Shown here one piece after another: positions 21,809-64,000 of a stretch of DNA of 64,000 nucleotides. A program made the position numbers and the translations under genes. Below the pieces are notes generated by a model. That model was not told the DNA's origin. It did no database searches and saw only the letters and a list, made by a program, of their open reading frames with translations. Source of the stretch: a candidate division FCPU426 bacterium (GTDB lineage Bacteria; Oederibacteriota; JAAXVQ01; JAUVAV01); contig DAOWGI010000002.1 of the NCBI GenBank assembly GCA_030637655.1, positions 40,355-104,354 of the forward strand. Direction: 5' to 3'. Positions within the stretch are counted from its first letter, which is position 1, and every line of letters starts with the position of its first letter.

Positions 21809-24800
21809 ATGAATAAAATCCCATCTATTGCTGCTTTTCGCCATCCCCGGCTTAGCATTTGGCTGAAAGCTTGCGCCATTTTGATGACCGTGAGTTTTGT
21901 GCTGCCCTACGTGACCTGGGCCTTTGATGCCGGGAATTATGCTATATCCCAACCTCATTTTCTGCGAATTGCTCACCTGGGAAAAGCGCTGAACGTTCCG
22001 GATAAAATCGGCGTCATTAAACAGGGTTTTCAGGGTAATGGCAAAACCGTGGTCTGTATCCAGGATTTGCATTGCAATTATGAGGTACAGAAGAATATTG
22101 CCAATATTATCCAGCACCTGGTAAAAAAGCACGGCTTGAAGCTAGTGGGCGAGGAAGGGGCATTTCATACGGTCGATACCTCGCCAATCAGCGCTTTCCC
22201 TATAAAAAAAGTCCGGGAAGAAGTAAGCGATTATTTTGTCAAGCAGGGCAAGATCACAGGCGCGGAGCATTATGCCGCCATCAGCGGCGGCGTTATTCAA
22301 CTGGAAGGCATTGAAACTCCCAAACTGTATGCAGCCGGCCAAAAAGCAGTGCGTAGCTTTTTGAATGCCGAGAGCCAGGGCTATTGCTATGATCTGCGCG
22401 ATATGCTGGAAGAATTGAAAGCTGATATTTATAATTCCCAACTCTTGAAATTCGATGGCAAGCGCGTGGCTTATCGCGAAGGCGATATAGACATTCTGAA
22501 ATACAGCGCATATCTGCATCGTATAGCCCGCAAGCTGCAAGTGGATTTGAGCGTGTATCCCAATTTGGCCCGCTTTCTCAGTCTGAAGCAGAATATTTTC
22601 TCCGCAAAAGTTGACCCGGACCAGCTTTTCCAGGAACTGGACAAACTGGATGCCCAAATCCGGCAACAGCTCTATACGGATAAAAAGCAACAGGAGTTGG
22701 ATGAATTATATACCCGCCTGGATATTGTCGAAAGACTTCTCAATATTTCCGTTTCCCAGGAAGAATTGCAAGCCTTTCGCACAGAGCGGGAAAAATATAC
22801 AACCCAGGCATTTATAAATTTCGTAGGGGCGATTCGTGAATCGCCCACCAATGAAGTGGATTATATTGAAAGTGATATGTATATCCTGGATGAATATTTA
22901 AAACAAGTGGAAGAGTTCTATCGCCTGGCAGATGAGCGGAGCATCCACTTTGTGGACAACCTGGTCCGCAAAATGGACCGCCTGGACGAGAACCTGGCAG
23001 TCATGATCAACGGCGGTTTTCATACTGACAAAGTCCTGGCTGAACTCAAGCGCCGGGATATCACCTATGTTTCCATCAAGCCACGCGTGACCCAACAGGA
23101 TGTGGTGAATCCGTATTTTTCCCTGCTTCAGGGTCGTAAAACCCCGTTGGAAAAGCTGCTGGCCAAGAATCAGACGATAATGGCGATAATGAATGGGTGG
23201 GAGAAGGATCCATCATTGACTCAACAAGTTGTATTATCTGTAAAAACATTTCGCGAACTTATGAGACACGGCGAGATAAAGATAATCCTAAAAGATTATC
23301 AGAAGAAATCTTTAGCTGCCTATATGGAACAATTTTCCAGCATTAAATTACTTAAAATAGAAGGCGAAGGCCTTCCGGACGGAGTTTATGCTTATTATTT
23401 ATCAATTAACGGGAAGAAATCAGATAACGTTTCGCTGGTTATGCGTAAAGGTCTTGTGCCGGAGATATGGCTGAACCAGCTTAATTTCGTTAGTTTTCAA
23501 AAATATTCGCGATGGATTTTATTGGTTGTTAGGTCCGTGAAAAAGGTTGGTCAAGTGCGGCAGGCGGTTCGGAAAAGTCCGAAGGCCTGGCCTGAAATGT
23601 TTTTCAAGGCGTGTGTGCTAGCAGTACCGGCATGGATAAAAGCAATAAAAAAAGAAGCATTAGCAGGCGTGGCAGTTGGAATCGCGCTGGCAGTATTTAT
23701 AGTCAGCGTCAATGTACCGGGCATTGTAATAACAGTACTGTTGAGTTTAACTATACTAACACAAATGAGAATGGATTTAAGGTATATGCAATTAGCCGGA
23801 GTGCCGCGAGTGGCAGGACAATGGATGTCCAAGGTTAGACAAAAAACCAAACTTGCTTTATTGAACGAAGGGTTGCCGGCGAAAACAGTGCCAGGCACCG
23901 AAGCCGAAAAAAAGATACCTCAACATAAAGAGTTGAATACCAAAAATAACGAGACAAGTAAAACCTTGAAGGATCGCTTCGCGAACTTGCTGCTGCACTC
24001 GGATAACATTCCGCGGGGCGCGTCGCTTACTCACGAATTATTCCGTTCATTGTTGGCTATTGATGAAAATACTGCCCTTGAGGGATGGCTGAAATATTTT
24101 GTGCCGGTTTATAGTGGTGTTACAGAAGAGGTGTGTAGGTTTAATTCGGAAATGCCCCAGACGCGCATGCCGGAAATACTGATTTTGGTAGGTTTGAAAT
24201 TAGCTGACCGGGAGCTGGAATACCAAGCGCAATTAGCTCGCTTGATAAGAGGGCAAAAGGTGGACTTGAAGGCAGTGGGCCCGGTTTTTGATACTAGTAT
24301 GAATAATTATTATAATATTTTAGGAGTTTCACGCGATGCTTCTAGCCATGAGATTAAAAAAGCTTATAGAAAATTGGCTTTAAAATATCATCCGGACCAA
24401 ACTCGCGGAAATAAAGAGGCTGAGGAGAAGTTTAAGAAAATAGAAGGGGCTTATTCGGTCCTAAGTGATCCAGATAAGAGAAAAACGTATAATTTGATGG
24501 GCCATGCTGCTTATACAAAAAGGCAGAGGTTTGGCGGCGGTATTATGTTGTGGCTGCGGAGTATTTGGGTCGGGATAGGCAATTTTTTAGATAGTCTGGG
24601 AGTAGAGGCAGCTTGGGTTAAGAAGGTATTTAGCGAAAAGACTTATGACTACGCGGTGGCCTCGATCGCGGAAAATGCCATTGTCAAGTATGCCGGACCA
24701 TTACTGGCTCCGGCTCTCATAATTTTGTTTCCCGAAATCACTCAGAATCAGGCAGCCTGGGCGCTTTTCCTCGGACTGCATATTCCTCAGATGTTTTGGA

Positions 24801-27800
24801 AAAAAGGCCGGCAGCTGCGCTATACTCTGCCCACTTTTGCACTAACAGCCATTGGCTTGTATTCTGACCTTTCGCCCCTGGGCGATGGTTTGATTGTGCA
24901 TTTAGCCGTGAATTTGGTTCTATACGGGATCGCACCGTGGATTATGAGCCGTATGGGCAGGGCTAAACTAAAGGAAAAAGCACAGAAATTAATTAAGCAG
25001 TTAGCTGGAATGTTGAAAAAGGAGCCAGGTGCCGAAAAAAAATCTAAAACAATGCAATATTCGCCGCTCTCTATAGCAGAAAGCGCTTTAGAGGAAACTC
25101 ATCCAGGATTTGCTGAAAATCATCCTGACCTATACTATGAAATCACTACGGAAATAGTGCCTAAATATGAATCATTACTATTTATTTGGGGCAAGAGGGA
25201 GGTGGCATTTAAGAAATTAAGAACAGAAGTAAATGAGCTTCTTGAGAAAGAAGGGCTGCAAGAAATAGAATTGAAGATGGAAGAAGTATATATACTTCCT
25301 TATGAAAAGCTGACCAAACATTTTATAGTAGGGAGTTTGTCGGTTTTCCTAATGTTTCAATATCCCGGGATAGCGTATCTTATAGCGGCAACAATACCGT
25401 CGTTGATTTATACACTGGTTCGAACCAATATTTATCAATTAATGTACAAAGGGAGAGAAAAAGAAAAACGGTTATGGTGGGTCGGCTTTGTTTTGGCAGT
25501 TACGATGAATTTCAGGATGCTGATTTTGCCTATGTTGATTTATGTGATATCAGTAATATTTAAAATAACAGGGATATTATTTGGGATTTGGATTTTTACT
25601 CTCGCTTGTTACGGAGTGTGGTACGGCATAAAACTAACACAGGAGGATGATAAAGCGCGACGATTAACTATCCGAATTATTGCCTGGTATAATAAAAAAG
25701 TTCTGGAGTGGAGAAAAAAGGGGAAGGGCTTAAGAGCCAGGAGTAAGGGGCTCTCAACAGCAGACAAAAAAGCGGAGCAAAGCTTTGATGAAGCATTAAA
25801 AGCAGCGGAGATAAAAATAAATAAATATTTAACAATTCTGAATATACCTGATATCCCTTTGGATGAAATTAATTATGATGTGATCGTGGAATATGCCGAG
25901 AAAAAAACCTATGGATATGGGTCATTTAAAGAAACAGATGAACAGCATAAAGCATGTTCGGTATTACGGGAACTATATGAAATAATGGGCAAGATGATTC
26001 TGAGGCAATTATATGAAGATGTCAAAATAGTCAATGAAAAAATGATTTCTGCTCAGAAAATTATACAACTGCGTGATCTGTTGAAAAAAATTGATGAAAG
26101 TACTGATAAAAGTGTTTGGGAGTCGACCTTAAACGGGATTGTTGAGAAAAGCAAAGAGTTCCAATTGAGTTTTAATATAAATATTGTACAACCAACGTCA
26201 GCCGGTTATCCTTCAGAAAAAGAATATCGCGAAAATGTGTCGGAGATGATTGAACTTGTTCGGAAGTTCACTGAGTTGGAAAAACAAATATCTCCGGCAG
26301 CTGCGGGCGAGTTTCGCGCAAGTGAAAGCAAACATGATGGCATTCTGGCGGTAGAACCGCCTATCGGAAAGATGATTTCAATAATTGAGCTAGAGTATCT
26401 TGTGCGTAAGGAGAAGTATGAGGATTCAAAATCCAGTCATAATGTCGAAAAGCTAATTGAGGATGTGAAAATAAATACCCCGGGCACACTGATAGAAGAA
26501 TTTCTTCGCGTATTTTTAGTGCTAAAAGAGAATTATGAAATAAAGCGAAAAGATATACAGTCAGGCATTACTACACCCCTTGGCGGGAAATCCAGTCTGC
26601 TAAAGAAATGGACGCTTATGCTGTTTCCGGATTGGGCAGGGCGTAAGTATACCAAGCTTCGTCTGGTTTTCATTGAAACCGGCTGGGTGCTGTTTTTGGG
26701 CGGGGTAGTGATGACCGGGCTGTGGGTTTTGAGCATGCTGGGAATGCCAATGCTCGCGGATTGGTTTCCGATTGACACCATAATAGGGCAAATGCAGAGC
26801 ATGTTTGAGATAGCCTTGATTTTCTTCCCAATTTTGCATTTGGATAAGGTATTTAATTGGATATTGGATAGAGCGCCCCCTGATCTTGATCGTTTATTAA
26901 GCCCGGTTTTACGCACTAAAGAACCAACCCCCTTGCCCAATGCCGCGATCGCTGCCGGTATATCCGCGCTGGCCTATATTTCCCTGCTGCAGGCCTGGGG
27001 TATTGTGATTGGCCTGCTGGTCTTTATTCTTTCCCACGCGGCAGTTAATCTGTATTTAGATATAGTACCCACCATTGCCCAAACTGTTAAAGCCGACCCA
27101 GTGCCTTTGACTTCCGGTTCAGTGCGGCCTCAAGGGGTTGGCGATTTGTTCGGCGCTAGTGGCGAAAACATGGTTAAGCGCCACTGGTTTTTTAAAATTC
27201 CAGGCACGAAATTGCTGGTGCTGCCGCTTATAGCACTTTTGTTTTTCCTGATCCCGTCTAAAGTTGTGGGTAATATGACAATTACGAATAAGGAGATTCT
27301 GCAAGCGCAATTGGCCTGCCGGCAGGCATTGCATGGACAAACTGTTAAAAATTCAAAGCAGCTGGCAGCGGGCAAGACGATCTATGAATTAATATTCGGC
27401 AAATTTTCAAGCGCCAATGACTTTCCAATGTACTTGAAATACATGACCGATTCGGTCGAACTGCGGGTGGTGGAACCGGCTGATGATAATGCCTCCTTTT
27501 TTGAAAAATTCAAAACCACTATACATGCAATCACAGCAGCTTTTTTTGGAACTCATACTGATACCCATCAAACGAATATATACGTATCAAAAAGCATGCT
27601 GGCATTGGCACTGGCAGAATCGAAAAATCAGCCTCAAACCTGGAAAGAGCAGCTGCTTACCCGGCTGGCAAAATTGCATTTGGGCCTGGTAATATGGTTT
27701 CAGAGCAATCTTTGCAAGACAATAATAAAGATTAGTTTAATCCCATCTGAGCTGGGCCTGGACGCAGCTGTTAATGTTTTGAAGCATCTTGGTTTTGGCC

Positions 27801-29533
27801 AAAAGTCCGGCGAAAAATTTCCTGCCGGCCATATGGACGTAACTGATTATACTGCCAAGATCCAGGCAGCCGGGAGCATGACCTGCGACAGCTCGCTCTT
27901 GCTGAACTTGATAGGACAGTACAGTCTGGATGTACAGAAAGTGCTTCAAAATCCCATGATCATGCCTTTGCTAAAGATTCTCATGCTGAAAGCATATCTC
28001 CTGGGTGATGTCAGGATGAATGCGGATACCTTAATCAGGGCAGCGCAAATGCCCATTGACGATTTGTTGCTCAGGGATGAGAAAGGGAATCCAGTAATTG
28101 ATTTTACGGCCTTGAATGAGTTGACCGTCCAATACGGCCTGGCTGAGTTTGAATTTTTGCCGGAAAACATTGAGGCCATCATTTTCGAGGCCAAGGAAAA
28201 TCCGGTCATGGAAACCATGCTGGTCCAGGTGTTGTCCGCGAATCCTGAAGCCAGGGAAGTACCATTAGCAAATATTGGCACCATGCTCAACGCACTGCTG
28301 GCTGATCAAAAAAGCTATAGGCCGGATACATCACAGGCCGGTCGAGTGCCTGAGACGATGGCAATTCAGGATATGCAAATATTACTGCCCCGGGAGACAG
28401 CTAAAGCAATGTTGCGCCAGGTCAATAAACTGCTGGCAGATCTTGGCAGGCATTCTGCGCCCGGCTTAGTTAAACGTCTCACAGTTTTGCAGAGTATCCT
28501 GCAAACTGCCGGGGATAATACTGCTTCCGGGCTGATTATAAAACTAACCGCTGAAGACCGCCCCTTCATTCAGGAACTGGCCGGCGAAATAATGCGTATT
28601 CAGCGCAGTAGTTCGGCGGTGGCATTCGTACCCCAGTTAGACCAATATGGCGCGCTGGTTGCATCTGATACGGGCGAGATAAAGCAAGTGCGGGTTGAAA
28701 CCACCCCAGGGCAATTTGAAGTTTTAGAAATTTTTAAGCGGGATTTATTCGACCTCGCAGCCACATCGGTTGAGGCCTTACAAGCAGGTGTCAAAGCGAT
28801 TTATAAGCGCCAAACCCCGGCTCAGGCTGAGATGAGGTTGTTTAGCGGTAAATACAAAGCCTGGGTGACAAATAAGCCCATAACCGGTTTATCTGCGGCT
28901 GATCAATTCTGGCTGCTGATGGCCAAAATCATACCTTTGCGGGTATTTAAAATCGCAGTTCACAAGCGTATTCAATATAGGAAGCCCTATGGATACATAA
29001 AAGCCCGGATATGGGATACCCTGCCAATGGAACTCAGAAATGCGCCTCTGGCCCGGGAATTTTTCCGAAAAGTGAAAAATGAAGCCAATGAAATATCACT
29101 GGCGCCCGGCAAACGCGCGGTTTTCAATACTTGCTGGAATTTTACGAGCGCTGATTGGAAGAATAAAGAAGCCTCGGCTAAGGCAGAATTGGAATTTGCC
29201 CTGAGCATGGTACTTTTCCTGGAAAAGCATAAAGGGCCCAGGCATTATCAAAACCTGGCTCTGTTTTTCCATGTGGTCAGACAGATGCAATCCATAACCC
29301 CGCTGCACTTTGCCAAAATGGATAAAACCTGGCAGTCTCAATATCCTTATCTTATTCATTCCGAATATCATATTCCGGCTGCTTTGAGGAAAGTATCCAG
29401 AGGATTTTTCGGCAAAGTAAAAGAACTGGTCGAATACAGCACTTCTCAGGAGTATTCGCCGTTTGTGGTTATTGATAAGTGGCTCGATCTGTTTGAGCGT
29501 AAAATTCAGCGTTGTTTTGGTGGGTCAGCGTAA
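21809..29533 (+). CDS. Giant modular membrane protein 1 (2574 aa) containing a DnaJ J-domain
   Basis: AGGGAG RBS; signal/TM segment; N-domain motifs QDLH, GEEGA, GGFH shared with the 55622 paralog; J-domain YYNILGV...KYHPD at ~24305-24515; several TM clusters. Confidence 0.92.
22823..22846. repeat. GTAG REP-like unit inside the giant CDS (reads VGAIRESP)
   Basis: gtaggggcgattcgtgaatcgccc, same architecture as the intergenic units. Confidence 0.8.
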
Positions 29534-29676
29534 AATTTTGTGAAACTTTGGGCAGGTTGGTTCTTACAGGGCATTATGCCTGACAGGAGGACTGATTTTC
29601 TATAGAAACGCCTCCCTGCCACGGCAGGCAATGCGCGGGACCGCGGGTATTCTGGCTTTTCTGTGGACTGCCGGAG

Positions 29677-30396
29677 TTAGCGGAAGATTATAGTTGCAGG
29701 TTTTTTAAAGGGTAAATGAATTTCAACACTCTCACCAGCCGGTGAGCGCAATTCGGTGAGGGTTACAGCGTTAGGTTTGATAAGGAATTCATAGTCGGAT
29801 ACTTGAAATTTTGAAAAAGAGGTTTGTCCCAGACTTCCCAGAAAAACATCGGATTTGCGTCCTGTTGGGAGCACTACTTTTTTAGGAAACAATTGGTTGT
29901 TTTTAATTATCCAAGCGTTACGATAAGCGCGGACCGGTCCGGGCCAGCGTTTGGCATGAATGTAGCATTTAAGACGATCGAGTGTTTCGGAGGGTTCGCC
30001 TGTTTCCGCATCCCTAGTATGACCACTGCTGGTATCAACAAAGAAAAGATGGTCACCGAATTTTAGCTTGCCAAAACCGATGGTTTTATAGGTTTTGGGC
30101 GCTATCCGGTATTTTATCTTAGGATTTGCCCGGGTTACGATAAGGGGTACTTCAGAAAGATTTAATACGTGTAAAATAACTTCAGCGCCGCCAGGCGAAT
30201 AAAATTTTGCCGGATACAATGTAGCCTGGTGATAGACCATGCCGAATTCCCAAGGCTGGGACGCCTGGTCGGATAAACGGGTGTTTTCGGTAATCGGAGC
30301 GTGTTCCCAGACCGCTTGCGTACTTGCCGGCAGAAATATAATTCCTGTCAAAAAAATAATGCCATACATTGTGGTGTGAAGTTGGAAAATTGACAT
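29677..30396 (-). CDS. Hypothetical exported protein, possibly beta-sandwich/cupredoxin-like
   Basis: 239-aa ORF with a signal-peptide-like N-terminus; start uncertain. Confidence 0.65.
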   Translation of the reverse strand: MSIFQLHTTMYGIIFLTGIIFLPASTQAVWEHAPITENTRLSDQASQPWEFGMVYHQATLYPAKFYSPGGAEVILHVLNLSEVPLIVTRANPKIKYRIAPKTYKTIGFGKLKFGDHLFFVDTSSGHTRDAETGEPSETLDRLKCYIHAKRWPGPVRAYRNAWIIKNNQLFPKKVVLPTGRKSDVFLGSLGQTSFSKFQVSDYEFLIKPNAVTLTELRSPAGESVEIHLPFKKPATIIFR

Positions 30397-30451
30397 GGGG
30401 CTATTTTATAAGAAAGCACCGGGTTTGTCATGCTGAAATTCCGATCGGAAG

Positions 30452-30628
30452 GTAACATGTCAGTGAACTAATAGAAAGAAAATTAACCGCCGATGAACGC
30501 CGATAAATACAGATTTAATTTTTTTATCTCTTAAGTTCTAAATATCTGCGTCTATCTGCGTTCATCGGCGGCTAATTTTGGTTTCGGTTTATCCGAATTA
30601 GGTTTTTTTCGCTTCACTGACATGTTAC
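30452..30628. mobile_element. GTAA-ended MITE, family B copy 1
   Basis: Perfect 16-bp TIR gtaacatgtcagtgaa/ttcactgacatgttac; body highly similar to 50502-50697; internal palindrome aaccgccgatgaacgc...gcgttcatcggcgg. Confidence 0.88.
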
Positions 30629-30649
30629 GGATACGCAGTTAAAAAAAAA

Positions 30650-30679
30650 TTGACAGGCCAAGCTGCGGTTTGATAGCAT
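30650..30679 (+). promoter_or_regulatory. Putative sigma70 promoter for the hydrolase/folE2 genes
   Basis: TTGACA-18bp-TAGCAT with an upstream TG (extended -10). Confidence 0.5.
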
Positions 30680-30738
30680 AATGCGACTCGGAAATTAGGG
30701 CTGTGAATCCATTAGGAATGTGAGGTTGGAGAGATACG

Positions 30739-31671: not shown

Positions 31672-31731
31672 CTTAACTGCGATGGTACGAAAAAAACACC
31701 AGCGACGATCGCAAATAGCCGGGAGGAAGTA

Positions 31732-33260: not shown

Positions 33261-33278
33261 TTATAGTGGAGGCGGTTC

Positions 33279-35703: not shown

Positions 35704-35755
35704 GGTAGAGACGCACTATAGTGCGTCTCTACCTGAAAGTGCGTCTCTACCTGAA
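35704..35755. repeat. GTAG REP-like palindrome plus an 18-bp tandem duplication of its right arm
   Basis: ggtagagacgcactatagtgcgtctctacc; agtgcgtctctacctgaa at 35720-35737 and 35738-35755. Confidence 0.85.
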
Positions 35756-40763: not shown

Positions 40764-40846
40764 TGTCACCCCCAATGGGTTGTATACCTGGCCTTGGTAT
40801 TAAAATACCGGAAAATAGGGTGAATTACCAGATAAATCTTATTAAA

Positions 40847-41108
40847 GGCAGATTGTAACTCATATTGCAACATTACCTGATTGCTACACAAACAGGCAAA
40901 TAGTTACTTTATCCCTAAAAGATCCACCACCAAGGCACAAAGGCACAAAGGTTCACTAAGCAGCATAATGATTAATAATTAAGGTCTATCTTAGGCTTTC
41001 CTTTGTGTATCTTAGTGTCCTTTGTGCCTTGGTGGTGGATCTTTTTCTTTAAGTCTTTATAGTTCAATAATAAATGATAAAATGTTGCACTTGTGATTAC
41101 AATTCACC
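40847..41108. mobile_element. Non-autonomous MITE, family A copy 2
   Basis: Near-identical to 8228-8490; flanked by a 14-bp direct repeat taaatcttattaaa (40833-40846, 41111-41124). Confidence 0.88.
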
Positions 41109-41212
41109 TTTAAATCTTATTAAATCAAAAAATAGCACACCCCCCTTCGGGGCACAAGCAATGATTTTTTAGCGGGTTTTGCAGCGGAAGCACAAGCTAA
41201 GACCGTCTCTGT

Positions 41213-43497: not shown

Positions 43498-43640
43498 GTG
43501 ACTTTGCTTCTCCGTCTGCTGTCAAAAAAAGAATGGTCCTCCTTTTCCATTCGCTTAATTTATCACAGTCGCAAGATTTGCGAAGCCAAAAAGCCCAAAT
43601 GTCCGGAATGTCCGTTGAAAAAAATATATCCCTACGCCGT
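43498..43640 (+). pseudogene. nth: 3'-terminal remnant of an endonuclease III (Nth) gene
   Basis: LLSKKEW...LIYHSRKICEAKKPKCPECPLKKIYPY matches the Nth C-terminus (HGR..C-x6-C-x2-C-x5-C) with G>S and last C>Y; no N-terminal part. Confidence 0.75.
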
Positions 43641-44531
43641 ATGCTCGGATTTAAAAAGACCTGCTATCCATCCCAGCGAAATGAAAACAGCGAGTACTAT
43701 GATTCCGATGATTCCTTGAAGATGCGCCCAGTGCGGATCATTGAGTCTGGTGAAGGTTAGTGGAATAAGGGCGCTGCCAAACAGCGTGGCGTGAGCAAGG
43801 GCGGGAACAAACACATTTCCTGACAACCTGCGTAACCATGTCAGTACGATTCCGGTTTCCAGGGCAAAACAGAGGCTGATCCCAAGTGCCAGAGTGGTTT
43901 TATCGATATAGATATATCCGTGAAGATAAAGCGGCAGCCGCCAAAGCCACCAGACTAAGCCGGTAAGTATTCCGGTAAGCCAAAAACCTGTTTTTTTCAG
44001 CCACTGATACAAATACCCGCGCCAGGCGATTTCTTCAGCCCAAGCAGGCAGAAACCATACCACCGGTCCAAATAGAAGATACCCGGAAATGAGTGCGAAC
44101 GGATTGGGAGAATGTTGGGTGGGTAAAATAAAATTATGAGACACACTAAAATAGAGATTCTGAGACGCAGTGCCCATATGCCAATCCCACTCGGCGAATC
44201 CCGCAAAAACACTTATGGCTGCTGCCAGAGCAGCGAGTAAAGGAAATAAGAACCAGGCAGGGATAAGATAAAAGAATTTTCCCTGAGTCAAGCCCAATTC
44301 CGAAGCCCTGCTGCTGTGGCCAAAGAAAAAGGCGGCCAGAACAGCCAAGCCAGGTCCAAAACTGAGTAACATGATACCCAAGGTCAGTTGCCCGGCCCGG
44401 TCCCAGGTAAACTCCCAGCCCCATTCCAGGAATTTGACCACCGGAAGCCAGCCGGCAGCTAAAACCAGCAAGATAAAAAGGATGTGAGCTAAAATACTCC
44501 GATGTTGGTGGAAAAAAGAAAAAAGTTGCAT
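43632..44531 (-). CDS. CPBP/Abi (CAAX protease) family membrane protein
   Basis: AEEIAWRGYL, multiple TM helices, ALAH; motif-2 His appears replaced (WWLWRLP). Confidence 0.82.
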   Translation of the reverse strand: MQLFSFFHQHRSILAHILFILLVLAAGWLPVVKFLEWGWEFTWDRAGQLTLGIMLLSFGPGLAVLAAFFFGHSSRASELGLTQGKFFYLIPAWFLFPLLAALAAAISVFAGFAEWDWHMGTASQNLYFSVSHNFILPTQHSPNPFALISGYLLFGPVVWFLPAWAEEIAWRGYLYQWLKKTGFWLTGILTGLVWWLWRLPLYLHGYIYIDKTTLALGISLCFALETGIVLTWLRRLSGNVFVPALAHATLFGSALIPLTFTRLNDPHWAHLQGIIGIIVLAVFISLGWIAGLFKSEHTA

Positions 44532-44671
44532 AGGGGTATTATAGGAGGCTAAAGGGGAAACCGGCAATATGAAAAACACAAAAGCAGGAGTCGGAATTCA
44601 GCTAATCCTAGGGCACAGGGGTTTTGCTCCTACTATTTGTCTCCTGTATTCTGTTTTTAGTATGAAGAGAC

Positions 44672-50393: not shown

Positions 50394-50501
50394 TTTTTCA
50401 CCCCATGCTTCTAAAGAATATTTTGTTTGTCGCTTGATTGTTGAATTGACCGCTATTATAGCATGCTCAGAAGGGAAGACAAGTCAGAAAACCAGGAGAA
50501 A

Positions 50502-50697
50502 GTATCATGTCAGTGAACTAATGGAAAGAAAATTAACCGCCGATGAACGCCGATAAATACAGATTGATTTTTTTTATCTCTTAAACTATAAATATCTGCG
50601 TTTATTTGCGTTCATCGGCGGTTAATTTTGGTTCCGGTTTATCCGGAATAGGTTCCCGGGTTATTTGACAAAACACAGCACTTCACTGACATATTAC
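50502..50697. mobile_element. GTAA-ended MITE, family B copy 2
   Basis: TIRs gtatcatgtcagtgaa/ttcactgacatattac; perfect 8-bp TSD aggagaaa (50494-50501, 50698-50705). Confidence 0.88.
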
Positions 50698-54468: not shown

Positions 54469-54473
54469 ATCGT

Positions 54474-54503
54474 TGTAGAGACGCGATTAATCGCGTCTCT
54501 ACA
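54474..54503. repeat. GTAG REP-like perfect palindrome
   Basis: Identical to 9247-9276. Confidence 0.9.
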
Positions 54504-54598
54504 ATACATAAGGTGAATTTCGGTAAACCATATCTATTTGTTTTTCGATTTCAGCCATGCTACAATCCTCGCAAATTGTATGTTTTGGAAAGGAAATT

Positions 54599-55273: not shown

Positions 55274-55552
55274 CATTTACGCATTCTAAGTGTTTGTAAT
55301 GAAGCTACCTCTATAACCCGCTTGTTGATCATAACCAGATCAAGGATGTTCTCTAAAATCTCTTTTTATAGGTAATCGATACTATATATTTTTGCTGTGC
55401 TTCCTTGGTAAAAAAAAGTACAAGCTATAAAGTTTGCATATTTATAGCTCTATTCTGAAGAAAAATTAATTTGCAAAAAATCAAAAGTGTTTCAAATTAA
55501 AACACAAATAATAATAAATAATAAAAACAAGAATAAAATATTAACCGAATAT

Positions 55553-55580
55553 TTGCGCTATCTGATTATTATGCTATAAT
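55553..55580 (+). promoter_or_regulatory. Putative promoter of giant gene 2 in an AT-rich leader
   Basis: TTGCGC...TGcTATAAT (extended -10). Confidence 0.45.
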
Positions 55581-55621
55581 ATATGTATATATTTAATTTA
55601 TATTTTTAATACGGGGATCAG

Positions 55622-58600
55622 ATGCGAATGCGGTTACCAATATCCATTTCATTTTGGCAGTGTCATTCACAGCGTTTTGGGTTAAAGGTGATGGCATTGC
55701 TAATCGCGTTCTCATTTATTTTTCCGTATCTCACCTGGGCCTTTGAACCACAAAGCTATACCATTCAAAAAACCGGCCAAATCTCAATTCATCATCTGGG
55801 CAAAACCCTGAGTTTGCCTGAAAAACTGGGGACCATACACAAAGGGTATCAAGGCGACAAACAATTGATCGTCCATATCCAGGATCTGCACTGTCACTAT
55901 GAAGTTCAAAAAAACATTGCCAATATCATTCACCATTTGGCCCAAGAGTACGAACTGCGTCTGGTAGGCGAAGAGGGCGCTTTTGCTTGTGTGAATACCA
56001 CCAAGCTCAGAACTTTTCCCATGCAGGAGGTGAAAGTACAAGTAGCTGATTACTTTGTCCGCCAGGGCAAACTCACTGGCGCGGAATTTTATGCCGGAAC
56101 CGGCGAGCACCCGGTGAATCTATGCGGTATTGAAACCCCGGACCTGTATCTGCGCAGCGAGAAAGCGGTGCGATCTTTTCTCAATCAAGAGACCCTGGGA
56201 TATTGCTATGATATCCGCGAACAATTGGAAGAATTAAAAAGCGAACTCTACTCGCCGGCTTTGAAACGCTTTGATCAAAAGCGAACCTTGTACCGGCAAA
56301 GTAAAATGGAATTATTGGCGTATTGTGCTTTTTTGAAAAAAACCGGTACTCGCCTGAAAGTCCCGTTTTCCGCCTATCCGGCCTTAAAGCGTTTTTTGCA
56401 AATACAGTCACCTGTGTTTACCCGAAAAATAGATTCAGATCAATTGTTCCAGGAAGCGGATGACCTGGATGCTTCCATCCGCCGCAGATTATATACCACA
56501 GAGGTGGAACGCGAACTGGATGACATGCTGTATCGTTTGGACATCATGGAAAAATTGCTGAATATTTCAGTGACCACTGCCGAGTTGCGCGAATTCCGCA
56601 GTTTACGTTCAGCTTTTTATATCCGGCAATTTGTTGCTTTCATTGAACGTAATGTGCCGGACAATGAGTACCTGCTGGATCACGGGGTGTATCAACTCGA
56701 TAATCATCTCAAGACTGTGGAAGATTTCTATCAAATGGCGGAAGAACGCAGCGTTCATTTTGTGGATAACCTGCAGCGCAAAATGGAGCGTGAAAACCAA
56801 AAGATCGCGGTCATGATTTCCGGCGGGTTTCATACCCGGGAAGTACTGGCTGAAATTGAACGCCAAGGAATATCCTATGTTTCCATCAAACCCCGCTTTA
56901 TTCGGCAGGATCTGGTAAATCCCTATTTTCAATTATTGCAGAACCGATACACACCTTTGGAAAAATTGCTGGTCAAAAATCAAAATATCCTGGCTTTGCG
57001 AACCTCTTGCAGTGATGGAAACTTTTCTCCGGAACAGATTGTGCGGTCTGCGCAGCTGACTGAGCCGCACCAAATTTTTTTTAACGACTCGACCGAATTG
57101 CTGTTGGAAAACGTGGCTGTGCTCACTTTGAAAACCCAAGGTCTGACCAATGAGCAAGTGGTGCCAGAACTAATTGCTGTGTTGGAGAGCTATGCCGCCA
57201 ATGAGCCGGATATTGGTGTGCAGCTGGCTCCGGCGTTTGTGGCGGAAAATGCCGAGCTCTTACCGGAAATTGGCAAGGATTTGGCAGTGGTAATTATTCC
57301 GACCAGCGCAACGGACAGCCGGGGCACTCAGATTAAGACCGTGGCAGTCTGGGATAAACACTTGAATGTGCCAATGGACTTGGCAGGCATTATTCCGCAA
57401 ATCGATATAGCCGGCAACCGGTTCCTGTTTTACCCGGCAGAGCGCGTTCCGGAGGTAGTGGCTGACTTAGTGAAAAGACAGTCTGCGCGTTTTAATCCCG
57501 GCCGCGTTGCGCGCCGGATGTTAAAGGATTGGCAGCAGTATGCGCAAGCCTTGGGTTTACTGGCTGTCAAGGCAGCGCGCTTCTGGGCATCCCATTGGCG
57601 TGTGCTGCGTGGCCGTATGGCTGCCTACTTTCAACCAGTGCCGCAACCTGTGCGCGCCGGTCTGATTGGTAAATATATAGTTCTCTCTGAACCGGAGTAT
57701 GACGCTAAACGCGGGGTGGTCTTTTTTAAAGGATATCATATTAAGAAAAAAGAAGTCAAAAACATAGAGATCAAAGCCCATTTGGTGTATGAAGATGTTG
57801 AGGAATTTCTAGCTGCTAAACTTTCTGTTTTTGCTGAATGGGAACAAAAACAGGAAAAATTATCCGGTCGGAAAGCGCATAAGATTTTACCTAAAGTACA
57901 GGAATGGATCAAGGATCGCGCTGCTATTGACCGGCTCTTGCTGCTGGATTCGAATAATCCGTATGGGATTCAAGGTTTGGGGACAAAAAACATGATTGCA
58001 GTGGGCACGAAGCTCCAGCATGAACCCATGGCCTGGCTGCATGAGACCCTGGAAGCCATGGGTATGGCCGGAGATATTACCGCTGAAGAGGTGCTGAGCT
58101 TTGTAGAAGATCACACCTGGTTTGATAAGAAAATGAAAGACCCAAATCGCCTGGGAATGAAATTGCATTACGCGATTATTGCTCTACAGCATGAGTTGAA
58201 TACAGCATACAATTATGATCTTTATTTCAATATCAAAGGACGGCTGTCCCGCAGAGAAATTTTTCAACAGATAAGGGAAACAGGAGTTTCTGAGAAGGCT
58301 GTTATTCAGGATTTTTATCAGCAACGCTCAACTGTAGAAACCATTGAACAAGAAAGAGAACTGCTGGCTGCTGTGATCAAAGCGCAAAAAGAGGCGGAAG
58401 CGCAAATAGACCGTCAAAAACAAAGAGCGCGCGAAACCCTGGAACTGGCCTGGGATTTTGTGAGTAATGATAAAAAACCATCATCCCATGAAACCCGGGA
58501 AAGCATGGTTCAGATGGTGTTCAATGCCCTGGATGTATTGGATCCCCAGGTTGCGGCTGATGTCTTGAGCGCGGAGATGCTGGACAATCTGTTTGCATCG

Positions 58601-61600
58601 CCTGGTAAATCCGGCTGGTCCCAAGCAATTCTGAAAAATGGAGTTTTGCAGCGCTCGCCAAAAGTTTCGGAGCGTGTACTGGTCAATGGATTTCAGAAAT
58701 TATTTGTGGATCGAACCGGAAGCCTCCAACAACGAAGAGCCTTGTGGCGCAATCTGCAAACGATTATGGATCACCGGGATACCTTGTCAAGCAGTACGCT
58801 GAAAGCTCTGAAGCATCTCTTGCGTGATGGATTGCAGGATATTTTTGCTTCTGAGGCAAGCAAGCCGGTTGATTTTTTTGAGCGTGAAACCATAATGGAT
58901 GCGTATCATTCTTTGCTGCTGCGGGATAATAACACTATCTTAAGTTTGGGTTTGGTCGGCACTTTGATAGGGAATCATGAGACCACGGATGCCAGTCTGG
59001 CTGTATTGGACATACTGCAGGAGTACTGTGAAGCGATCTCACCAGACCGGGCCAATATTATAGTTGGTAAACCCCGCTGGTTTACCAACTTACTGCTGAA
59101 AATGTATGCGGCAGCGGACAGTCCGGAAAAAAAGTGCCTCATACTTAGGCGCATCCGGAAATTTTATCCGCTTATGTCATCACCTGAAATCGAAACCATA
59201 TTATTTGATTATTTTGTCCCGCATTTGCAATTGGCTGCTGCAGAAGTACCCCGCCTGGCGCCCAAGGCCGAAGCGTTGCGTGATGAAATTGATGAGAGCA
59301 TGGAGCAGATTGAAGCTTTGGTCTTGTTACTGAGGACCTTGGCAAAGTTTTCTCAAGATGATGCAGTCTTGCAGTATTTAGTTAAGATGGCACGTTCTAA
59401 TATCTGGCACTCGCATGTTACCTCAGAGGTGGCCTCTGTTTTGGCCCGGTTTTTAGAGGATGAACATCCGGAAGTGATCCGCTTATTTACTGATCATTTG
59501 ACACCAGGTTGGCGCACTATAGAAAAGAAGCGCTTGGATGATATGCTGGCCAAAGATGTGACAGATGAAAAAATATTGCGCTGGCTGCGAACCAAACGCG
59601 GAAAAACGCGGGCCGGATTCATGGTGCTTTTACGTCATAGAAAGCGGGCAGGATTATTACAGGCCATTGTCCTGAATCAATTTAATCGCAGAACTCTAAC
59701 CTTTCCACTACTCCTGCGTTTATACGCGATAGTATTGCATGCTTCGGAGAATATTACCAAAAAGGACAAAAACACCAAAAAAGAATTTATTGAGATGTGG
59801 AGCAGTCTGGAAATGGAAGCAGGAGTGAGCCTGAGAGCTACGATTGTGGAAATGTTGAAAGATGATGCTGCTGCGCGCGATATGGTGGATAACATCTGGC
59901 TGCAGGACGAGGTTTTGAAAATTTATGTGGCAACAGACATGCTGGATACAGTCGTGGAATATCCGAGGCTGAAAAATTCGGATGATGGTTTGCGTCATCA
60001 GGTGGCCAGTTCTGATTATGCGCGCATGGCGCCGTACTTTCGAAATGCGCGTACTTCCTTTAAAATCGGGGGCCGGCTGATAAAAGCCGCGCCTGAGCCG
60101 GCGCTGTTTTTGCTGCAGGTCATTAAGCATGAATTGGGTCATGTGCTTGGGGATGCTTATATTGGCTATCATGGAAAAAATCGCGACAGCATTGATCCGA
60201 GTTTGCAAGAACATTTTGCCGATTTATTTCCGGATGAGTTCTCGCGCCGTTTTGAGCAAGATGTCACGTATTTTCGTAAACGTTTTCACTATGAGGAGCA
60301 TTTTAAGACGGTCGCAGAACACGACAATCGGGCAGATGACGAGTATATGGGCGGCCGGGCTGTTACCCAGATCATTGAAAAAGCGTTTGAGGAATCGAAC
60401 ATACCAATAACTTCGGGTGATCTGATTGAAGCGGAATTGTATGTGTTTGCCAATCTGCCGCCTAATTTATCTGTGCGTAGGTTTGTGCATTTGGTTGTGG
60501 ACCGCTATACCAAGGCCTATCATGATGAGTTGGCTGAGGATAAGGGTGTGAGATCGCTCTTGAAAAAAGCGAAGGCCGCTGATATTGAAAACCCGCTGAA
60601 AACCTTTTCCAAAAAAGGGATAAAGCTGCCGACTGTGGAGGAATTGGTGGCTCGAATTAAAGAAGCCAGTCTGGGCGGGATTATGTCATGGTTGAAAGCG
60701 CCGATAGTACGGATTTTAAAAATCCAACCCCAAACCTATGACCTCGGGGTGGCCTGGCTGGCGGAGAACAGCCTCTCGCTGACCATAGGTGGTGTGGTAT
60801 CAGTGGTTGCTGGTGTGGCTATCGGGCTGGATGTTTCGCAAATGCTCAATCTCGGGTATGTGCTGGCCTGGCCAATATTCTTTGGTCTGCATTATATCAA
60901 GGCCAACGGCGAACGCGCGCCGCCTGCTAACCGGATTTTAGCCGGTATGATCGCTATTTTCAATCTTGCACTGATGTTTACCTCCTTGCCCCTGCCCATA
61001 ATGTTTGCCGCTTCATTCATTATTCATTGGTATGTGAACCAGGTTATGTCCAGAACAGAAATATCCTTCAAACAATACTTGCGCGGTGTATTTATGCGTC
61101 CCTGGCAGGAGTTCACCATTGAAAACTTTTTTAGTCCGGGCAAATGGCTGCGTGCACATAAGAATAAAAAACCTGATGGAAAAACAGATTACTTTGAACT
61201 GATTCCGCGCCTTATCGGCATTGTCAATATGTACACCAGCATATTTACTGTGCCAATGCTGGCAGTCTATGCCATTCCAGGCCTGGGCGCGGCCCTGGGA
61301 GCCATGGGATGGGCAGCGGTTTTGGTGCCAATAACTTCTGCGGTGCCGGCCTTCCTGGGCATGCATGGTGTTTATAATGTGTTTGTCCCCTGGGCGCAGT
61401 TGTCATTGGAGCAACAACCGGATGAACCTGACGCAGAAGCGCGGAACCTGGAAGGGGAAATCAATCGCTTTAAGCGTTTGCCGGAATTCAAGCGTTTGAA
61501 CGGTGTTGTCGGATTTTCAGGTATGGGAGTGAACTTAGGACCTGAGTTTTCCGCTGCGCGACACAATTTGCTGGCCGGTCGTGTTGTTCGGAAAGTGGCG

Positions 61601-64000
61601 AAATTTTATGGTTGGGAAGCCAGTAGACCGGAATTCCTTTGTTTGGTAAAAGATTTTGTTGTCCTGCCGTTTAATCAATATGCTAAAGCCGGTAGAATAG
61701 GCAAATTGCTGAAAGAAGCCGAATATCAGGAAAGAGAATTGGTGGTTGGCAAATTAGAACAAGTAGGCTTTAAATTAACACCTGAGCTTAAGAAAGACCT
61801 GCTGAATTTCAGCGCCAAGACGCGTGCCAATCTGTCTGCTGCCGGTAAACGCGCCCTGGCTTGTGAAAGTGTTGTCCAGGTAGTGGAAGCCACGATCAGA
61901 GGGATAAAAAAAGGACGTTTTACCTGGGCGGACATTCCTGATATGTTGCCGCAAAAGCAGTGTTTTGCTGCTGTGACTACGGCAGAAGGAAAAAAAACAA
62001 ACACAGATGATATTGTGGCCAATATTGCTGCTAGTATGCTGTGTGAATCCGGCACAACTCCGGACCAACTGCTGACGCGTGCCTTGGAAATAAATGAGGC
62101 ATGGCGCAAAGAGTTTCTGGACGCGTATTTTAAAGTGGATCGTGATCCGAAAAAAATATTAAGTGTACAAAACATCTTGCTGGGATTGTACCGGGCATAT
62201 GTGGCTGAATATGAGGTGAGTGTGGAAGAAGGAAATCCCAAAGCAGCGGCTGCGTTTGCCGCTGAAAAACTTTCGCGTTTTAATGAAACGGATGTCATGC
62301 AAGCCAGTGCTTATGTGGCACGGGGTGTTAAACCAAAAGCAATCCAACTGACGCGTGAACAGCAGCGGATTCTTGTCCGGGTCATTTGCACGAATATGAC
62401 CAGGTCCAATGAAGCGGAGTTGTTGGAAGGCAGACCGGTTACTGCCAATTTAATAGGGTGCGCCGGTGTTGTGGCTGTTGGGCCTGTTGAGCAAGGAGTC
62501 GGACATGTGGGTTACTTAAGTTATGCTCCTGACCACATCAGCATAGCAAACTTACGTAAAATTCTGGAACCCATCAAATCTGTGGTTGGTCAGGATGAGG
62601 TTCTGGTTATTTCCTCCACCGGGCGCACCAGCCGGCAAAATATCAAATACTTGGAGAATTTTATCAGGGAACGCTTTGAGGTGGAATTAACCAGGCCGGT
62701 TTACGTGCTGCGCAGCCAGGAGTGGTTTGGAGCCCATGTTTCGGATATGTATATTGTCACCAATGTGCTGGCCCTGCCGGACGGGGGCGTGTATATATTG
62801 TACACCTCGCAGGATACAAAAAAATATTACGGTATGGCTGAATATCAGGGTCAGGGCCGCTGGTATTTTTGGGATACTAAATGTTTTGATATGGTGGAAA
62901 AATTGGCGGTCCGGGTGGAGGCGTTGGAAGAGCAGCAGCTGACCGGCATACCCGATGGCAATGAGATATCCCTGAATTTGGCGGAATTGATTTCTGAGCA
63001 GGATATTATACAAGTGCAGCCGGCAGATGATAAAGTAAAAACTCCTGTGTTTAAAGACGGGATGATACAGGTGCCGGCACTCAATCGCGCTTTGGCGCAG
63101 ATCAGTGAAAAAATAAATCAAGCGGGTTTGGGAGCAGAGGTCTTGATTAGTCTGGGCGGAAGTATTAGGGTTATGAGTCATGCCCAGACTCAAATACCCT
63201 TGTCAAAATTTCATGATTTTGATATTGAAGTAAACCTGTCACGCGCGGTGGATCAAGAAAAATTGGCTGCAGCGCTGCGTATTGCCGGCAACCGTGTCTT
63301 GACTGAGTACGGACTTTCCTTTTCTGAACTCTATGTAAATACCAAGCCGGGGACACCGATGACCGTGCGCGGTAAAATACAAGACTCGAAAACTAAACAC
63401 ACGTATTCGATAGACTTTTTAAATAAAGTACTGGATGGACCTATTACTGAAGAGCGAATGATGGAATGGTATCGGAATTTTCTGTCATCCCAATATGAAA
63501 AAACAGGAAGTATAGCCTGGCATAAATTGGAGGCTTTTGATCCGCTATCAGATCCTCGGAAATTCATAGTTCGCTATTTGGCCTATGAATGGTTATTTGG
63601 AAAGGAGGCGTTGTATGCCGGTTATGTTCAACAATTCCTAAACACCGAAGAGAAAGCCTATCCGGCACTGGTGCGGGAAATCATAGGGAAAAAGCGTGTG
63701 ACTGTTTTAACAAAGGCAGTAACCCGTCACCTCGATCGTTTGGGACAAACACCGGATCAAAAAATTCAGTCAACCTCTCCCATTGGCGGTATCTGGCCCT
63801 GGTTAAAAGCCTGGATTGATCCGTTTTTGGTGCGCTTAGGATTGGCGCCTGGCACCTACGACCGCTGGGTGGCGTGGCTGGCGGAAAATGGAATATCCCT
63901 GCTTGCAGGATCGATTGCGTCTATGGCCTTAATCTCAGTGGGTGCGGTAAGTCCTGAGCTGTTCTGGCAAGCAGGTTATTTGGCTGCCTGGCCGATTTTC
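55622..64000 (+). CDS. Giant modular membrane protein 2 (>2793 aa, 3'-truncated), paralog of 21809-29533
   Basis: Manual translation: MRMRLP...FPYLTWAF...[18 protein letters not shown]...GEEGAF...SGGFH...LEKLL. Spot-checked segments stay in frame to the window end, and the ORF track lists no terminated ORF in this frame. Confidence 0.92.
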   Translation, partial: MRMRLPISISFWQCHSQRFGLKVMALLIAFSFIFPYLTWAFEPQSYTIQKTGQISIHHLGKTLSLPEKLGTIHKGYQGDKQLIVHIQDLHCHYEVQKNIANIIHHLAQEYELRLVGEEGAFACVNTTKLRTFPMQEVKVQVADYFVRQGKLTGAEFYAGTGEHPVNLCGIETPDLYLRSEKAVRSFLNQETLGYCYDIREQLEELKSELYSPALKRFDQKRTLYRQSKMELLAYCAFLKKTGTRLKVPFSAYPALKRFLQIQSPVFTRKIDSDQLFQEADDLDASIRRRLYTTEVERELDDMLYRLDIMEKLLNISVTTAELREFRSLRSAFYIRQFVAFIERNVPDNEYLLDHGVYQLDNHLKTVEDFYQMAEERSVHFVDNLQRKMERENQKIAVMISGGFHTREVLAEIERQGISYVSIKPRFIRQDLVNPYFQLLQNRYTPLEKLLVKNQNILALRTSCSDGNFSPEQIVRSAQLTEPHQIFFNDSTELLLENVAVLTLKTQGLTNEQVVPELIAVLESYAANEPDIGVQLAPAFVAENAELLPEIGKDLAVVIIPTSATDSRGTQIKTVAVWDKHLNVPMDLAGIIPQIDIAGNRFLFYPAERVPEVVADLVKRQSARFNPGRVARRMLKDWQQYAQALGLLAVKAARFWASHWRVLRGRMAAYFQPVPQPVRAGLIGKYIVLSEPEYDAKRGVVFFKGYHIKKKEVKNIEIKAHLVYEDVEEFLAAKLSVFAEWEQKQEKLSGRKAHKILPKVQEWIKDRAAIDRLLLLDSNNPYGIQGLGTKNMIAVGTKLQHEPMAWLHETLEAMGMAGDITAEEVLSFVEDHTWFDKKMKDPNRLGMKLHYAIIALQHELNTAYNYDLYFNIKGRLSRREIFQQIRETGVSEKAVIQDFYQQRSTVETIEQERELLAAVIKAQKEAEAQIDRQKQRARETLELAWDFVSNDKKPSSHETRESMVQMVFNALDVLDPQVAADVLSAEMLDNLFASPGKSGWSQAILKNGVLQRSPKVSERVLVNGFQKLFVDRTGSLQQRRALWRNLQTIMDHRDTLSSSTLKALKHLLRDGLQDIFASEASKPVDFFERETIMDAYHSLLLRDNNTILSLGLVGTLIGNHETTDASLAVLDILQEYCEAISPDRANIIVGKPRWFTNLLLKMYAAADSPEKKCLILRRIRKFYPLMSSPEIETILFDYFVPHLQLAAAEVPRLAPKAEALRDEIDESMEQIEALVLLLRTLAKFSQDDAVLQYLVKMARSNIWHSHVTSEVASVLARFLEDEHPEVIRLFTDHLTPGWRTIEKKRLDDMLAKDVTDEKILRWLRTKRGKTRAGFMVLLRHRKRAGLLQAIVLNQFNRRTLTFPLLLRLYAIVLHASENITKKDKNTKKEFIEMWSSLEMEAGVSLRATIVEMLKDDAAARDMVDNIWLQDEVLKIYVATDMLDTVVEYPRLKNSDDGLRHQVASSDYARMAPYFRNARTSFKIGGRLIKAAPEPALFLLQVIKHELGHVLGDAYIGYHGKNRDSIDPSLQEHFADLFPDEFSRRFEQDVTYFRKRFHYEEHFKTVAEHDNRADDEYMGGRAVTQIIEKAFEESNIPITSGDLIEAELYVFANLPPNLSVRRFVHLVVDRYTKAYHDELAEDKGVRSLLKKAKAADIENPLKTFSKKGIKLPTVEELVARIKEASLGGIMSWLKAPIVRILKIQPQTYDLGVAWLAENSLSLTIGGVVSVVAGVAIGLDVSQMLNLGYVLAWPIFFGLHYIKANGERAPPANRILAGMIAIFNLALMFTSLPLPIMFAASFIIHWYVNQVMSRTEISFKQYLRGVFMRPWQEFTIENFFSPGKWLRAHKNKKPDGKTDYFELIPRLIGIVNMYTSIFTVPMLAVYAIPGLGAALGAMGWAAVLVPITSAVPAFLGMHGVYNVFVPWAQLSLEQQPDEPDAEARNLEGEINRFKRLPEFKRLNGVVGFSGMGVNLGPEFSAARHNLLAGRVVRKVAKFYGWEASRPEFLCLVKDFVVLPFNQYAKAGRIGKLLKEAEYQERELVVGKLEQVGFKLTPELKKDLLNFSAKTRANLSAAGKRALACESVVQVVEATIRGIKKGRFTWADIPDMLPQKQCFAAVTTAEGKKTNTDDIVANIAASMLCESGTTPDQLLTRALEINEAWRKEFLDAYFKVDRDPKKILSVQNILLGLYRAYVAEYEVSVEEGNPKAAAAFAAEKLSRFNETDVMQASAYVARGVKPKAIQLTREQQRILVRVICTNMTRSNEAELLEGRPVTANLIGCAGVVAVGPVEQGVGHVGYLSYAPDHISIANLRKILEPIKSVVGQDEVLVISSTGRTSRQNIKYLENFIRERFEVELTRPVYVLRSQEWFGAHVSDMYIVTNVLALPDGGVYILYTSQDTKKYYGMAEYQGQGRWYFWDTKCFDMVEKLAVRVEALEEQQLTGIPDGNEISLNLAELISEQDIIQVQPADDKVKTPVFKDGMIQVPALNRALAQISEKINQAGLGAEVLISLGGSIRVMSHAQTQIPLSKFHDFDIEVNLSRAVDQEKLAAALRIAGNRVLTEYGLSFSELYVNTKPGTPMTVRGKIQDSKTKHTYSIDFLNKVLDGPITEERMMEWYRNFLSSQYEKTGSIAWHKLEAFDPLSDPRKFIVRYLAYEWLFGKEALYAGYVQQFLNTEEKAYPALVREIIGKKRVTVLTKAVTRHLDRLGQTPDQKIQSTSPIGGIWPWLKAWIDPFLVRLGLAPGTYDRWVAWLAENGISLLAGSIASMALISVGAVSPELFWQAGYLAAWPIF

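Follow-up and report, generated by a model that had tools for sequence, protein, structure and literature searches.

Predicted four-helix membrane modules with a near-invariant Glu/His/His/Asn set, many of them with a RAPP motif, in giant proteins of a candidate division FCPU426 bacterium

Within a stretch of 64,000 nucleotides from a candidate division FCPU426 bacterium (assembly GCA_030637655.1, contig DAOWGI010000002.1, positions 40,355 to 104,354; the whole stretch is called the window below), two giant proteins contain repeated copies of a module of about 125–170 residues. The best-supported conclusion, drawn from alignments and structure prediction, is that this module constitutes a new, previously undescribed integral-membrane domain, consisting of a Gly-Gly pair, a short amphipathic helix and four membrane helices. 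It carries a near-invariant set of one Glu, an FxxxH motif and an HxxxN motif and in 28 of 45 copies the exact tetrapeptide RAPP. Tentatively we favor the reading that the module may be a membrane-stapling domain with a cytoplasm-facing catalytic or metal center and probably with a translational pause of its own. RAPP is believed to be shunned by bacteria because it jams the ribosome, and the uses known for it are in small leader peptides serving as sensors of the secretion machinery; exact RAPP kept in a repeated folded domain would extend arrest peptides from gene regulation to the assembly of very large membrane proteins. Moreover, the Glu/His/His/Asn set would be a new candidate intramembrane enzyme or metal site without family assignment. 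The host proteins, with their series of kinases, helicases, radical SAM enzymes, methyltransferases and a J-domain, also bear on the question whether the products of giant bacterial genes are made and act as a single chain or are cut up in the manner of viral polyproteins.

A sequence-only reading of the window had proposed one module at five places, and the residue strings that it quoted are exact translations at all five ranges, all of them within the giant open reading frames (ORFs) G1 or G2 (Table 1). Four of the places, beginning at 24533, 26582, 60674 and 63785 (M1, M2, M3 and M5), belong to one profile family, whereas the fifth (61097-61378, part of M4), which had been taken for a variant of the module, is a distinct element that was never matched by the module profile in three rounds and gave an hhalign probability of 1% against it. 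BLASTP connects M3 with M5 (E 1.7e-13, 43% identity) and, in the small window database, M1 with M5 (3e-5). M2 was missed by BLASTP and by the first profile and was found with an E-value of 4.4e-23 after three profile rounds on relatives. The starting profile, an alignment of M3, M1 and M5, matched 27 proteins at E ≤ 1e-3 among 1,835,955,588 cluster representatives, 13 at 1e-10 and 4 at 1e-30. The matched proteins are 407–7768 residues long, most of them more than 1,500, and the named ones are labelled "candidate division FCPU426" or just "bacterium". One candidate, P0013, was rejected as a family member, being a repeat protein that was matched via 11 short stretches. The iterated profile (three rounds on relatives) yielded 40 module instances at E < 1e-4, and a genome scan with a six-copy module alignment gave 17 pattern matches, none of which was confirmed. 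The bare pattern E..FxxxH..HxxxN is not rare, since it occurs five times in six-frame ORFs of at least 100 residues in the window, twice in probably spurious minus-strand ORFs; the significance of the module therefore rests on the profile scores and on conservation in the relatives. The suggestion that the copies at 60674 and 63785 resemble each other at the DNA level and could serve as recombination points found no support, because their DNA identity is too low (77% over 48 nt only, with no long direct repeat linking M3 and M5). Searches of titles and abstracts found no paper on the module or on giant proteins of the FCPU426 lineage. Four database proteins (P0003, P0005, P0006 and P0009) begin or end within a module, and P0003 (2795 residues), the database copy of G2, stops within M5. 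Such ends would fit assembly breaks at near-identical module repeats in some genomes; if so, gene lengths and module counts are underestimated.

Which residues characterize the module? Conservation was assessed in 45 distinct near-full copies (48 were found and 3 duplicates removed), which are 22–62% identical to the reference copy M3; residues are numbered along the segment 60644-61063. F79 is present in all 45 copies, E41, H83 and H128 each in 44 and N132 in 43, so that the one Glu, FxxxH and HxxxN named as key residues in the sequence-only reading are indeed near-invariant. They are accompanied by Y32 (43/45), A37 (39/45), A100 (38/45), W76 (37/45), N42 (35/45), D33 (32/45) and N107 (28/45), as well as by G11 and G12, which are found in 38–39 of the 41 copies having these columns. 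At the positions of RAPP the counts are 34/45 for R91, 34/45 for A92, 33/45 for P93 and 28/45 for P94. The sole degenerate copy, residues 424-565 of P0010, has lost the Gly-Gly, the E, both H and the N together. Near-invariance combined with joint loss of E/H/H/N is, as judged from the alignment, the behavior of a catalytic or metal site and not of a plain anchor.

AlphaFold2, run on a 29-copy alignment, reached a predicted local distance difference test score (pLDDT) of 92.9 and a predicted template modeling score (pTM) of 0.86. In the model of the segment 60644-61063 a short helix (15-25) is followed by four long ones (29-60, 64-82, 94-112 and 117-135); E41 is found where helix 1 starts and H83 where helix 2 ends, and H128/N132 belong to the last third of helix 4. 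Lys and Arg are distributed very unevenly, with on average 4.69 per copy in the N-terminal flank, 0.00 in loop 1-2, 2.73 in loop 2-3, 0.02 in loop 3-4 and 0.89 in the C-terminal flank. According to the positive-inside rule, Lys/Arg-rich flanks and loops are cytoplasmic, and this bias therefore suggests that both ends of the module and loop 2-3, which contains RAPP, are located in the cytoplasm. The positions of the helix ends together with this topology would place E41, H83 and H128/N132 toward the same cytoplasmic face.

How could RAPP contribute? In the available text of two studies, ApdA and ApdP are arrest peptides built around a RAPP core (PMC10951233), and RAPP and RGPP arrest translation in several upstream contexts, upstream context being required (PMC12992588). 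The available text of the latter study also counts both among the most strongly excluded four-residue words of bacterial proteomes, with a single RAPP protein in E. coli MG1655, and locates them, for the most part close to the C-terminal end, in small proteins that are secreted or reside in the membrane (PMC12992588). The arrest is described as being released by pulling force (PMC12992588, PMC10951233, available text), and membrane helices, in the available text of a third study, pull on the chain from the moment that their N-terminal end is about 45 residues off the peptidyl-transferase center until their C-terminal end is at that same distance (PMC7886326). In the module, RAPP is exact in 28 of the 45 copies and broken in the other 17, none of which has RGPP, RSPP or RDPP. 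The "RAPP signature" that had been ascribed to the module thus holds for M2, M3 and 28 copies overall and fails for M1, which has KKGRQ where RAPP would stand, and for 16 other copies. In 27 giant proteins RAPP occurs 25 times within 6,086 module residues and not once in the 70,198 others, where 1.1 occurrences would be expected. G1 and G2 contain one RAPP each, at residue 1688 of 2574 (M2) and at residue 1765 of at least 2793 (M3). Since 16 of the 17 RAPP-less copies keep E, H, H and N, RAPP is not needed for the polar center. The distance to the last Pro in the 28 RAPP copies is 35 residues (median; range 31–47) from the end of helix 1 and 54.5 residues (median; range 50–68) from the Glu near the start of helix 1. 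As the 45-residue point thereby falls inside helix 1, this helix would be in mid-insertion at the stall point. A further hint at a pause is that the stretch without predicted membrane helix before a copy is longer with RAPP (median 706 residues, n=24) than without (466 residues, n=17; one-sided Mann-Whitney p=0.006), albeit for related, non-independent copies, with a crude hydropathy predictor and with distances that are lower bounds in truncated proteins.

The RAPP-containing copies share the exact core with the arrest peptides of the ApdA and ApdP type, to which SecM with RAGP can be added, and likewise have a membrane segment upstream at pulling distance (PMC10951233, PMC12992588, PMC7886326, each as far as the available text goes). 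ApdA, ApdP and SecM are small leaders (<300 residues) with the motif near the C-terminus that regulate a downstream gene, whereas RAPP of the module is, as known from the sequence, internal, repeated in a giant ORF and part of a presumably folded membrane domain. A search of titles and abstracts found no paper on RAPP inside large multi-pass proteins. RAPP was also seen in divergent membrane segments of two related loci, which match the module profile only weakly (1–10 bits). In the ORF of L053 (residues ~2620-2740) it follows a helix 2 that ends in His, the last motif being HxxxD (HVATD), and in the ORF of L056 (residues ~2960-3075 and ~3535-3650) it stands, twice, directly after a helix 4 ending in HWQWN instead of in loop 2-3.

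From these elements the following mode of action could be imagined. Sitting between soluble enzyme domains, each copy would hold the long cytoplasmic chain at the membrane like a staple, as the predicted helices and their predicted orientation suggest. Near the cytoplasmic face the Glu of helix 1, the FxxxH that ends helix 2 and the HxxxN of helix 4, together with the Tyr before helix 1 and an Asn on helix 3, would form a polar set that may act as hydrolytic or metal-binding center, and cutting of the host protein near the conserved Gly-Gly, in cis or in trans, is conceivable. RAPP after helix 2 would, considering the motif and its placement, make the ribosome pause once a long cytoplasmic stretch has been translated, and the pause would last until the chain is pulled by helix 1 upon its engagement with the insertion machinery. 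A more far-reaching version, to which we give rather little credence, would make the module a biogenesis checkpoint, where the ribosome, having translated hundreds to over a thousand cytoplasmic residues, halts at RAPP and resumes only once helix 1 has been pulled in, and where, in the boldest form, the E/H/H/N center cuts near the Gly-Gly. If true, this would be the first arrest motif that acts in cis and repeatedly inside a giant ORF, and the arrest would serve to bring the translating ribosome back to the membrane and not to control a gene downstream. The giant gene would, in the boldest form, be a bacterial polyprotein whose enzyme products are released or tethered module by module. Post-translational cleavage has been proposed for giant proteins of Omnitrophota, based on C39 and S8 peptidase domains (bioRxiv 10.1101/2023.11.21.568195, available text). 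These are likewise very large ORFs of uncultured lineages with many membrane segments for which processing into several products is considered, whereas their domain content and lineage differ from those of the module hosts, as far as the available text of that preprint describes them; a text search of its available part found no mention of FCPU426, CPBP, CAAX or DnaJ.

The host proteins have about 2,500–7,800 residues, are multi-enzyme proteins and contain one to at least four module copies; they belong to an uncultured lineage, the records of which are labelled FCPU426, Firestonebacteria or Goldiibacteriota. A Pfam scan that covered 24 relatives (P0007 and P0015 were left out because of their length) found domains in 13 of them (12 without P0013) and gave no match for 11. 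The domains are radical SAM, PIG-L, HAD, FHA, several methyltransferases, cytidine/MafB19-like deaminase, HATPase_c, GNAT, aldose epimerase, PPDK_N and PEP-utilizers, protein kinases, HTH and SF1 helicase. Several enzyme domains stop 10–55 residues short of a module, such as the kinase of P0019 (152-314, module at 350) and the helicase of P0024 (end at 1164, module at 1207). The picture of a module with adjacent cargo is thereby borne out, as in relatives the module sits directly downstream of kinase, helicase, PEP-utilizing, J-domain and other enzyme domains. In G1, where DnaJ is the sole Pfam match, the J-domain is identified by the profile and by the YHPDQ sequence (HPD motif) visible in the translation, and only 14 residues separate its end (residue 895) from the GG of M1 (residue 909). 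The C-terminal 650 residues of G1 are 24% identical to the C-terminus of the relative P0004 (E 1.5e-25).

Both G1 and G2 begin with a head domain (52% identity between them). This head of about 460 residues is common to G1, G2 and at least 12 relatives at 40–65% identity and has the invariants D..HC..E, EG and GG.H, which include His, Glu and Asp. Neither Pfam nor PDB sequence profiles gave a match for the head. Foldseek searches with the head model returned as best matches the erythromycin esterase EreC (6xcs/6xcq) and Bacillus cereus homologues (3b55, 2rad). The match to 6xcs has a probability of 0.97 and an E-value of 1.7e-3 but a template modeling score (TM-score) of 0.20 and a root-mean-square deviation of 19 Å. 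Erythromycin esterase is the best fold match of the head with its invariant His, Glu and Asp, but at TM-scores of only about 0.2 and without a sequence match in Pfam or the PDB. Scanning genomes with the head alignment revealed 76 loci (L001-L076), of which 70 lie in nine assemblies that carry the labels Firestonebacteria, Goldiibacteriota or "uncultured bacterium" and 6 weaker ones in Omnitrophota and Nitrospirota assemblies; several assemblies contain at least eight head copies each. The module was seen in only 8 ORFs of these head loci.

Could the module instead be a very divergent true CPBP/Rce1 (Abi) protease that cuts its own polyprotein and thereby releases the neighboring enzyme domains? 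In the four-helix core of Rce1 the motif residues are found on the first, second and fourth helices. The module is membrane-embedded like these proteases and shares with them the order of Glu, FxxxH and HxxxN (HxxxN/D in CPBP), presumably near one membrane face. In addition, its near-invariant motif 2 concludes helix 2 and motif 3 belongs to helix 4 in a predicted four-helix bundle, a Gly-Gly is conserved at its N-terminal boundary, and the architecture of the relatives is polyprotein-like. Nevertheless, we consider this explanation unlikely, and membership in the family, which the sequence-only reading had proposed, is not supported. None of the five window segments and none of the 29 module copies tested matches PF02517 at E ≤ 10, whereas true CPBPs of the same lineage do (2.3e-21, 4.7e-13 and 1.4e-9), and hhalign gave probabilities of 0.2% and 0.1% against CPBP profiles comprising only 4–6 sequences of one lineage. 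Foldseek, a method weak on all-helical membrane bundles, found no PDB match for the M3 model at E ≤ 0.001 (best 0.48) and neither an Rce1 nor a gamma-secretase entry among its best 50 matches. A tblastn search of plasmids with a CPBP, intended to deepen the CPBP profiles, found no match. Since the CPBP profiles are shallow and Foldseek is weak on helical bundles, the weight of these negative results is limited, and a very distant relationship is conceivable. Furthermore, the PDB sequence profile of the module gave chance matches only, and the ESM Atlas returned for M3 unnamed clusters (best score 0.85) and no named family. The motifs themselves also differ. In place of EExxxR there is a single Glu, as had been noticed, followed by Asn and without a conserved Arg four residues on, and the E-H and H-H intervals are 42 and 45 residues in M3 versus 33 and 34 in a canonical CPBP encoded by a related genome, that is 9–11 residues longer. 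Moreover, CPBP/Rce1 proteases are stand-alone enzymes, whereas the module consists of no more than four helices, to which the Gly-Gly/amphipathic helix and the RAPP loop are added, and recurs within giant proteins. As far as these comparisons go, the module should not be filed as a member of CPBP/Rce1, and common descent is not supported.

A simpler explanation is that of a passive anchor, with the polar residues as structural hydrogen-bond or metal-ion network and RAPP as a tight turn into helix 3, without catalysis, cleavage or stalling. This we regard as possible, though somewhat improbable. The following points weigh against a stapling domain with active center and pause, and several of them speak for the anchor. 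Pfam, PDB profiles, Foldseek, hhalign and the Atlas showed no homology to any enzyme family, and that E, H, H and N come together in space is deduced from helix ends only. Among the head-domain ORF pieces for which the fetched DNA includes a stop codon, only 3 out of 49 contain the module, so that it is an optional insert within an extensive family of head paralogs. RAPP is missing from 17 of the 45 copies, including M1, nearly all of which keep the polar set, and its placement would fit any motif of loop 2-3, which makes it compatible with a pause but no proof of one. In 321 other ORFs of related loci, a noisy background of 160,631 residues with partly spurious ORFs, RAPP was seen four times with 3.1 expected; as it is not depleted there, the ribosome of this lineage may tolerate RAPP, which may be conserved merely as structural turn or as part of the site. 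Against a merely passive anchor argue the near-invariance of E/H/H/N at 22–62% identity and their joint loss, which are stronger than usual for packing residues. Similarly, RAPP behaves in an all-or-nothing manner, without conservative variants among the broken copies and absent from the 70,198 other residues, and it recurs at another position in the weakly matching divergent segments. It could also be imagined that the giants leave the producer as polymorphic effector- or toxin-like proteins, with export directed by the head and with the module as translocation or pore element that delivers the variable enzyme domains to another cell. The head indeed begins with a signal-like hydrophobic segment and is massively multiplied, and the regions after it are highly variable, a MafB19-like deaminase and kinases being among their contents. 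This explanation is nonetheless very improbable, since the strong positive-inside pattern puts the flanks of the module into the cytoplasm of the producer, many attached domains are ordinary cytoplasmic ones needing adenosine triphosphate, S-adenosylmethionine or chaperone partners (DnaJ, radical SAM, PPDK), and no secretion-system genes adjoin G1 or G2 within the window.

The window is part of a bacterial chromosome with ordinary genes, including those for cobalamin adenosyltransferase, a CLC channel, a chemoreceptor and NAD synthase, and contains three giant plus-strand ORFs without family assignment (Table 1). Rfam and tRNA scans of the window gave no matches. G0 was rejected as a further carrier, as it lacks both the module and any predicted membrane helix and is not similar to the other giants. 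The next ORF after G0 (5202-7103, plus strand) encodes 633 residues, and neither this ORF nor G0 has a Pfam or NCBIfam match. In G2 the head is followed by a long stretch without predicted membrane helix, then by M3, M4, about 800 residues and M5. The long stretch contains the zinc-peptidase-like HExxH sequence HELGH (60128-60142, plus strand, residues 1503-1507 of G2) about 180 residues upstream of M3; it is kept in the relative P0004 (SHELGH), and the region around it in G2 is without Pfam match.

Table 1. Giant ORFs of the window and the elements found in them, with positions counted from the first nucleotide of the window.
Feature	Positions	Strand	Residues	Description and sites
G0	1-5175	+	at least 1724	5' end open
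G1	21809-29533	+	2574	head, J-domain, M1, M2, C-terminal region
G1 head	21809-23248	+		hydrophobic segment, then ~440-residue domain
J-domain (DnaJ)	24305-24493	+	G1 833-895	PF00226 E 6.5e-28; NCBIfam DnaJ models match too
M1	24509-24949	+	G1 901-1047	profile matches 6e-65 and 4.8e-24; GG 24533; E in IAEN 24665-24682; FLGLH 24767-24781; HLAVN 24899-24913
M2	26558-27085	+	G1 1584-1759	divergent, with loop insertions; GG 26582; E in FIET 26669-26686; FPILH 26825-26839; RAPP 26870-26881; HAAVN 27035-27049
G2	55622-64000	+	at least 2793	3' end open, runs past window end
G2 head	55622-57061	+		AlphaFold2 mean pLDDT 77.6
M3 (reference copy)	60650-61075	+	G2 1677-1818	profile match 2.7e-50; GG 60674; E in LAEN 60758-60775; FFGLH 60878-60892; RAPP 60914-60925; HWYVN 61025-61039
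M4	61067-61432	+	G2 1816-1937	conserved hydrophobic element
M5	63758-64000	+		profile match 2.4e-25; cut by window end past the start of helix 2, before FxxxH, RAPP and HxxxN

M4 is defined by the invariants PW.EF, IPR, F.G.H..Y and PWAQL. Seven instances were found, four of them directly after a module (in G2, P0005, P0006 and P0009) and three elsewhere.

The window also contains a genuine CPBP/Rce1-like gene (43632-44576, minus strand; PF02517 E 5.4e-13), which is located 11 kb upstream of G2 and for which an FCPU426 relative was found. The four close relatives of its product keep EExxxR and are variable in the His of motifs 2 and 3. An ortholog in locus L005 is separated by 2.7 kb from a giant gene with head domain.

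Three repeats were observed between or next to genes of the window. An intergenic element of about 270 bp, without Rfam match, is found at 8223-8491 and 40842-41110 (92–95% identity), and its two copies are each flanked by a direct duplication of their own, ATGGAATAAAATTAAA and AAATCTTATTAAA; it looks like a small non-autonomous mobile element with putative target-site duplications. A second intergenic repeat of 157 nt is present at 30448-30604 and 50498-50654 (91% identity). Finally, the perfect palindrome of 30 nt TGTAGAGACGCGATTAATCGCGTCTCTACA occurs in identical form at 9247-9276 and 54474-54503 and as a variant at 35704-35733, each copy just past the end of a gene.

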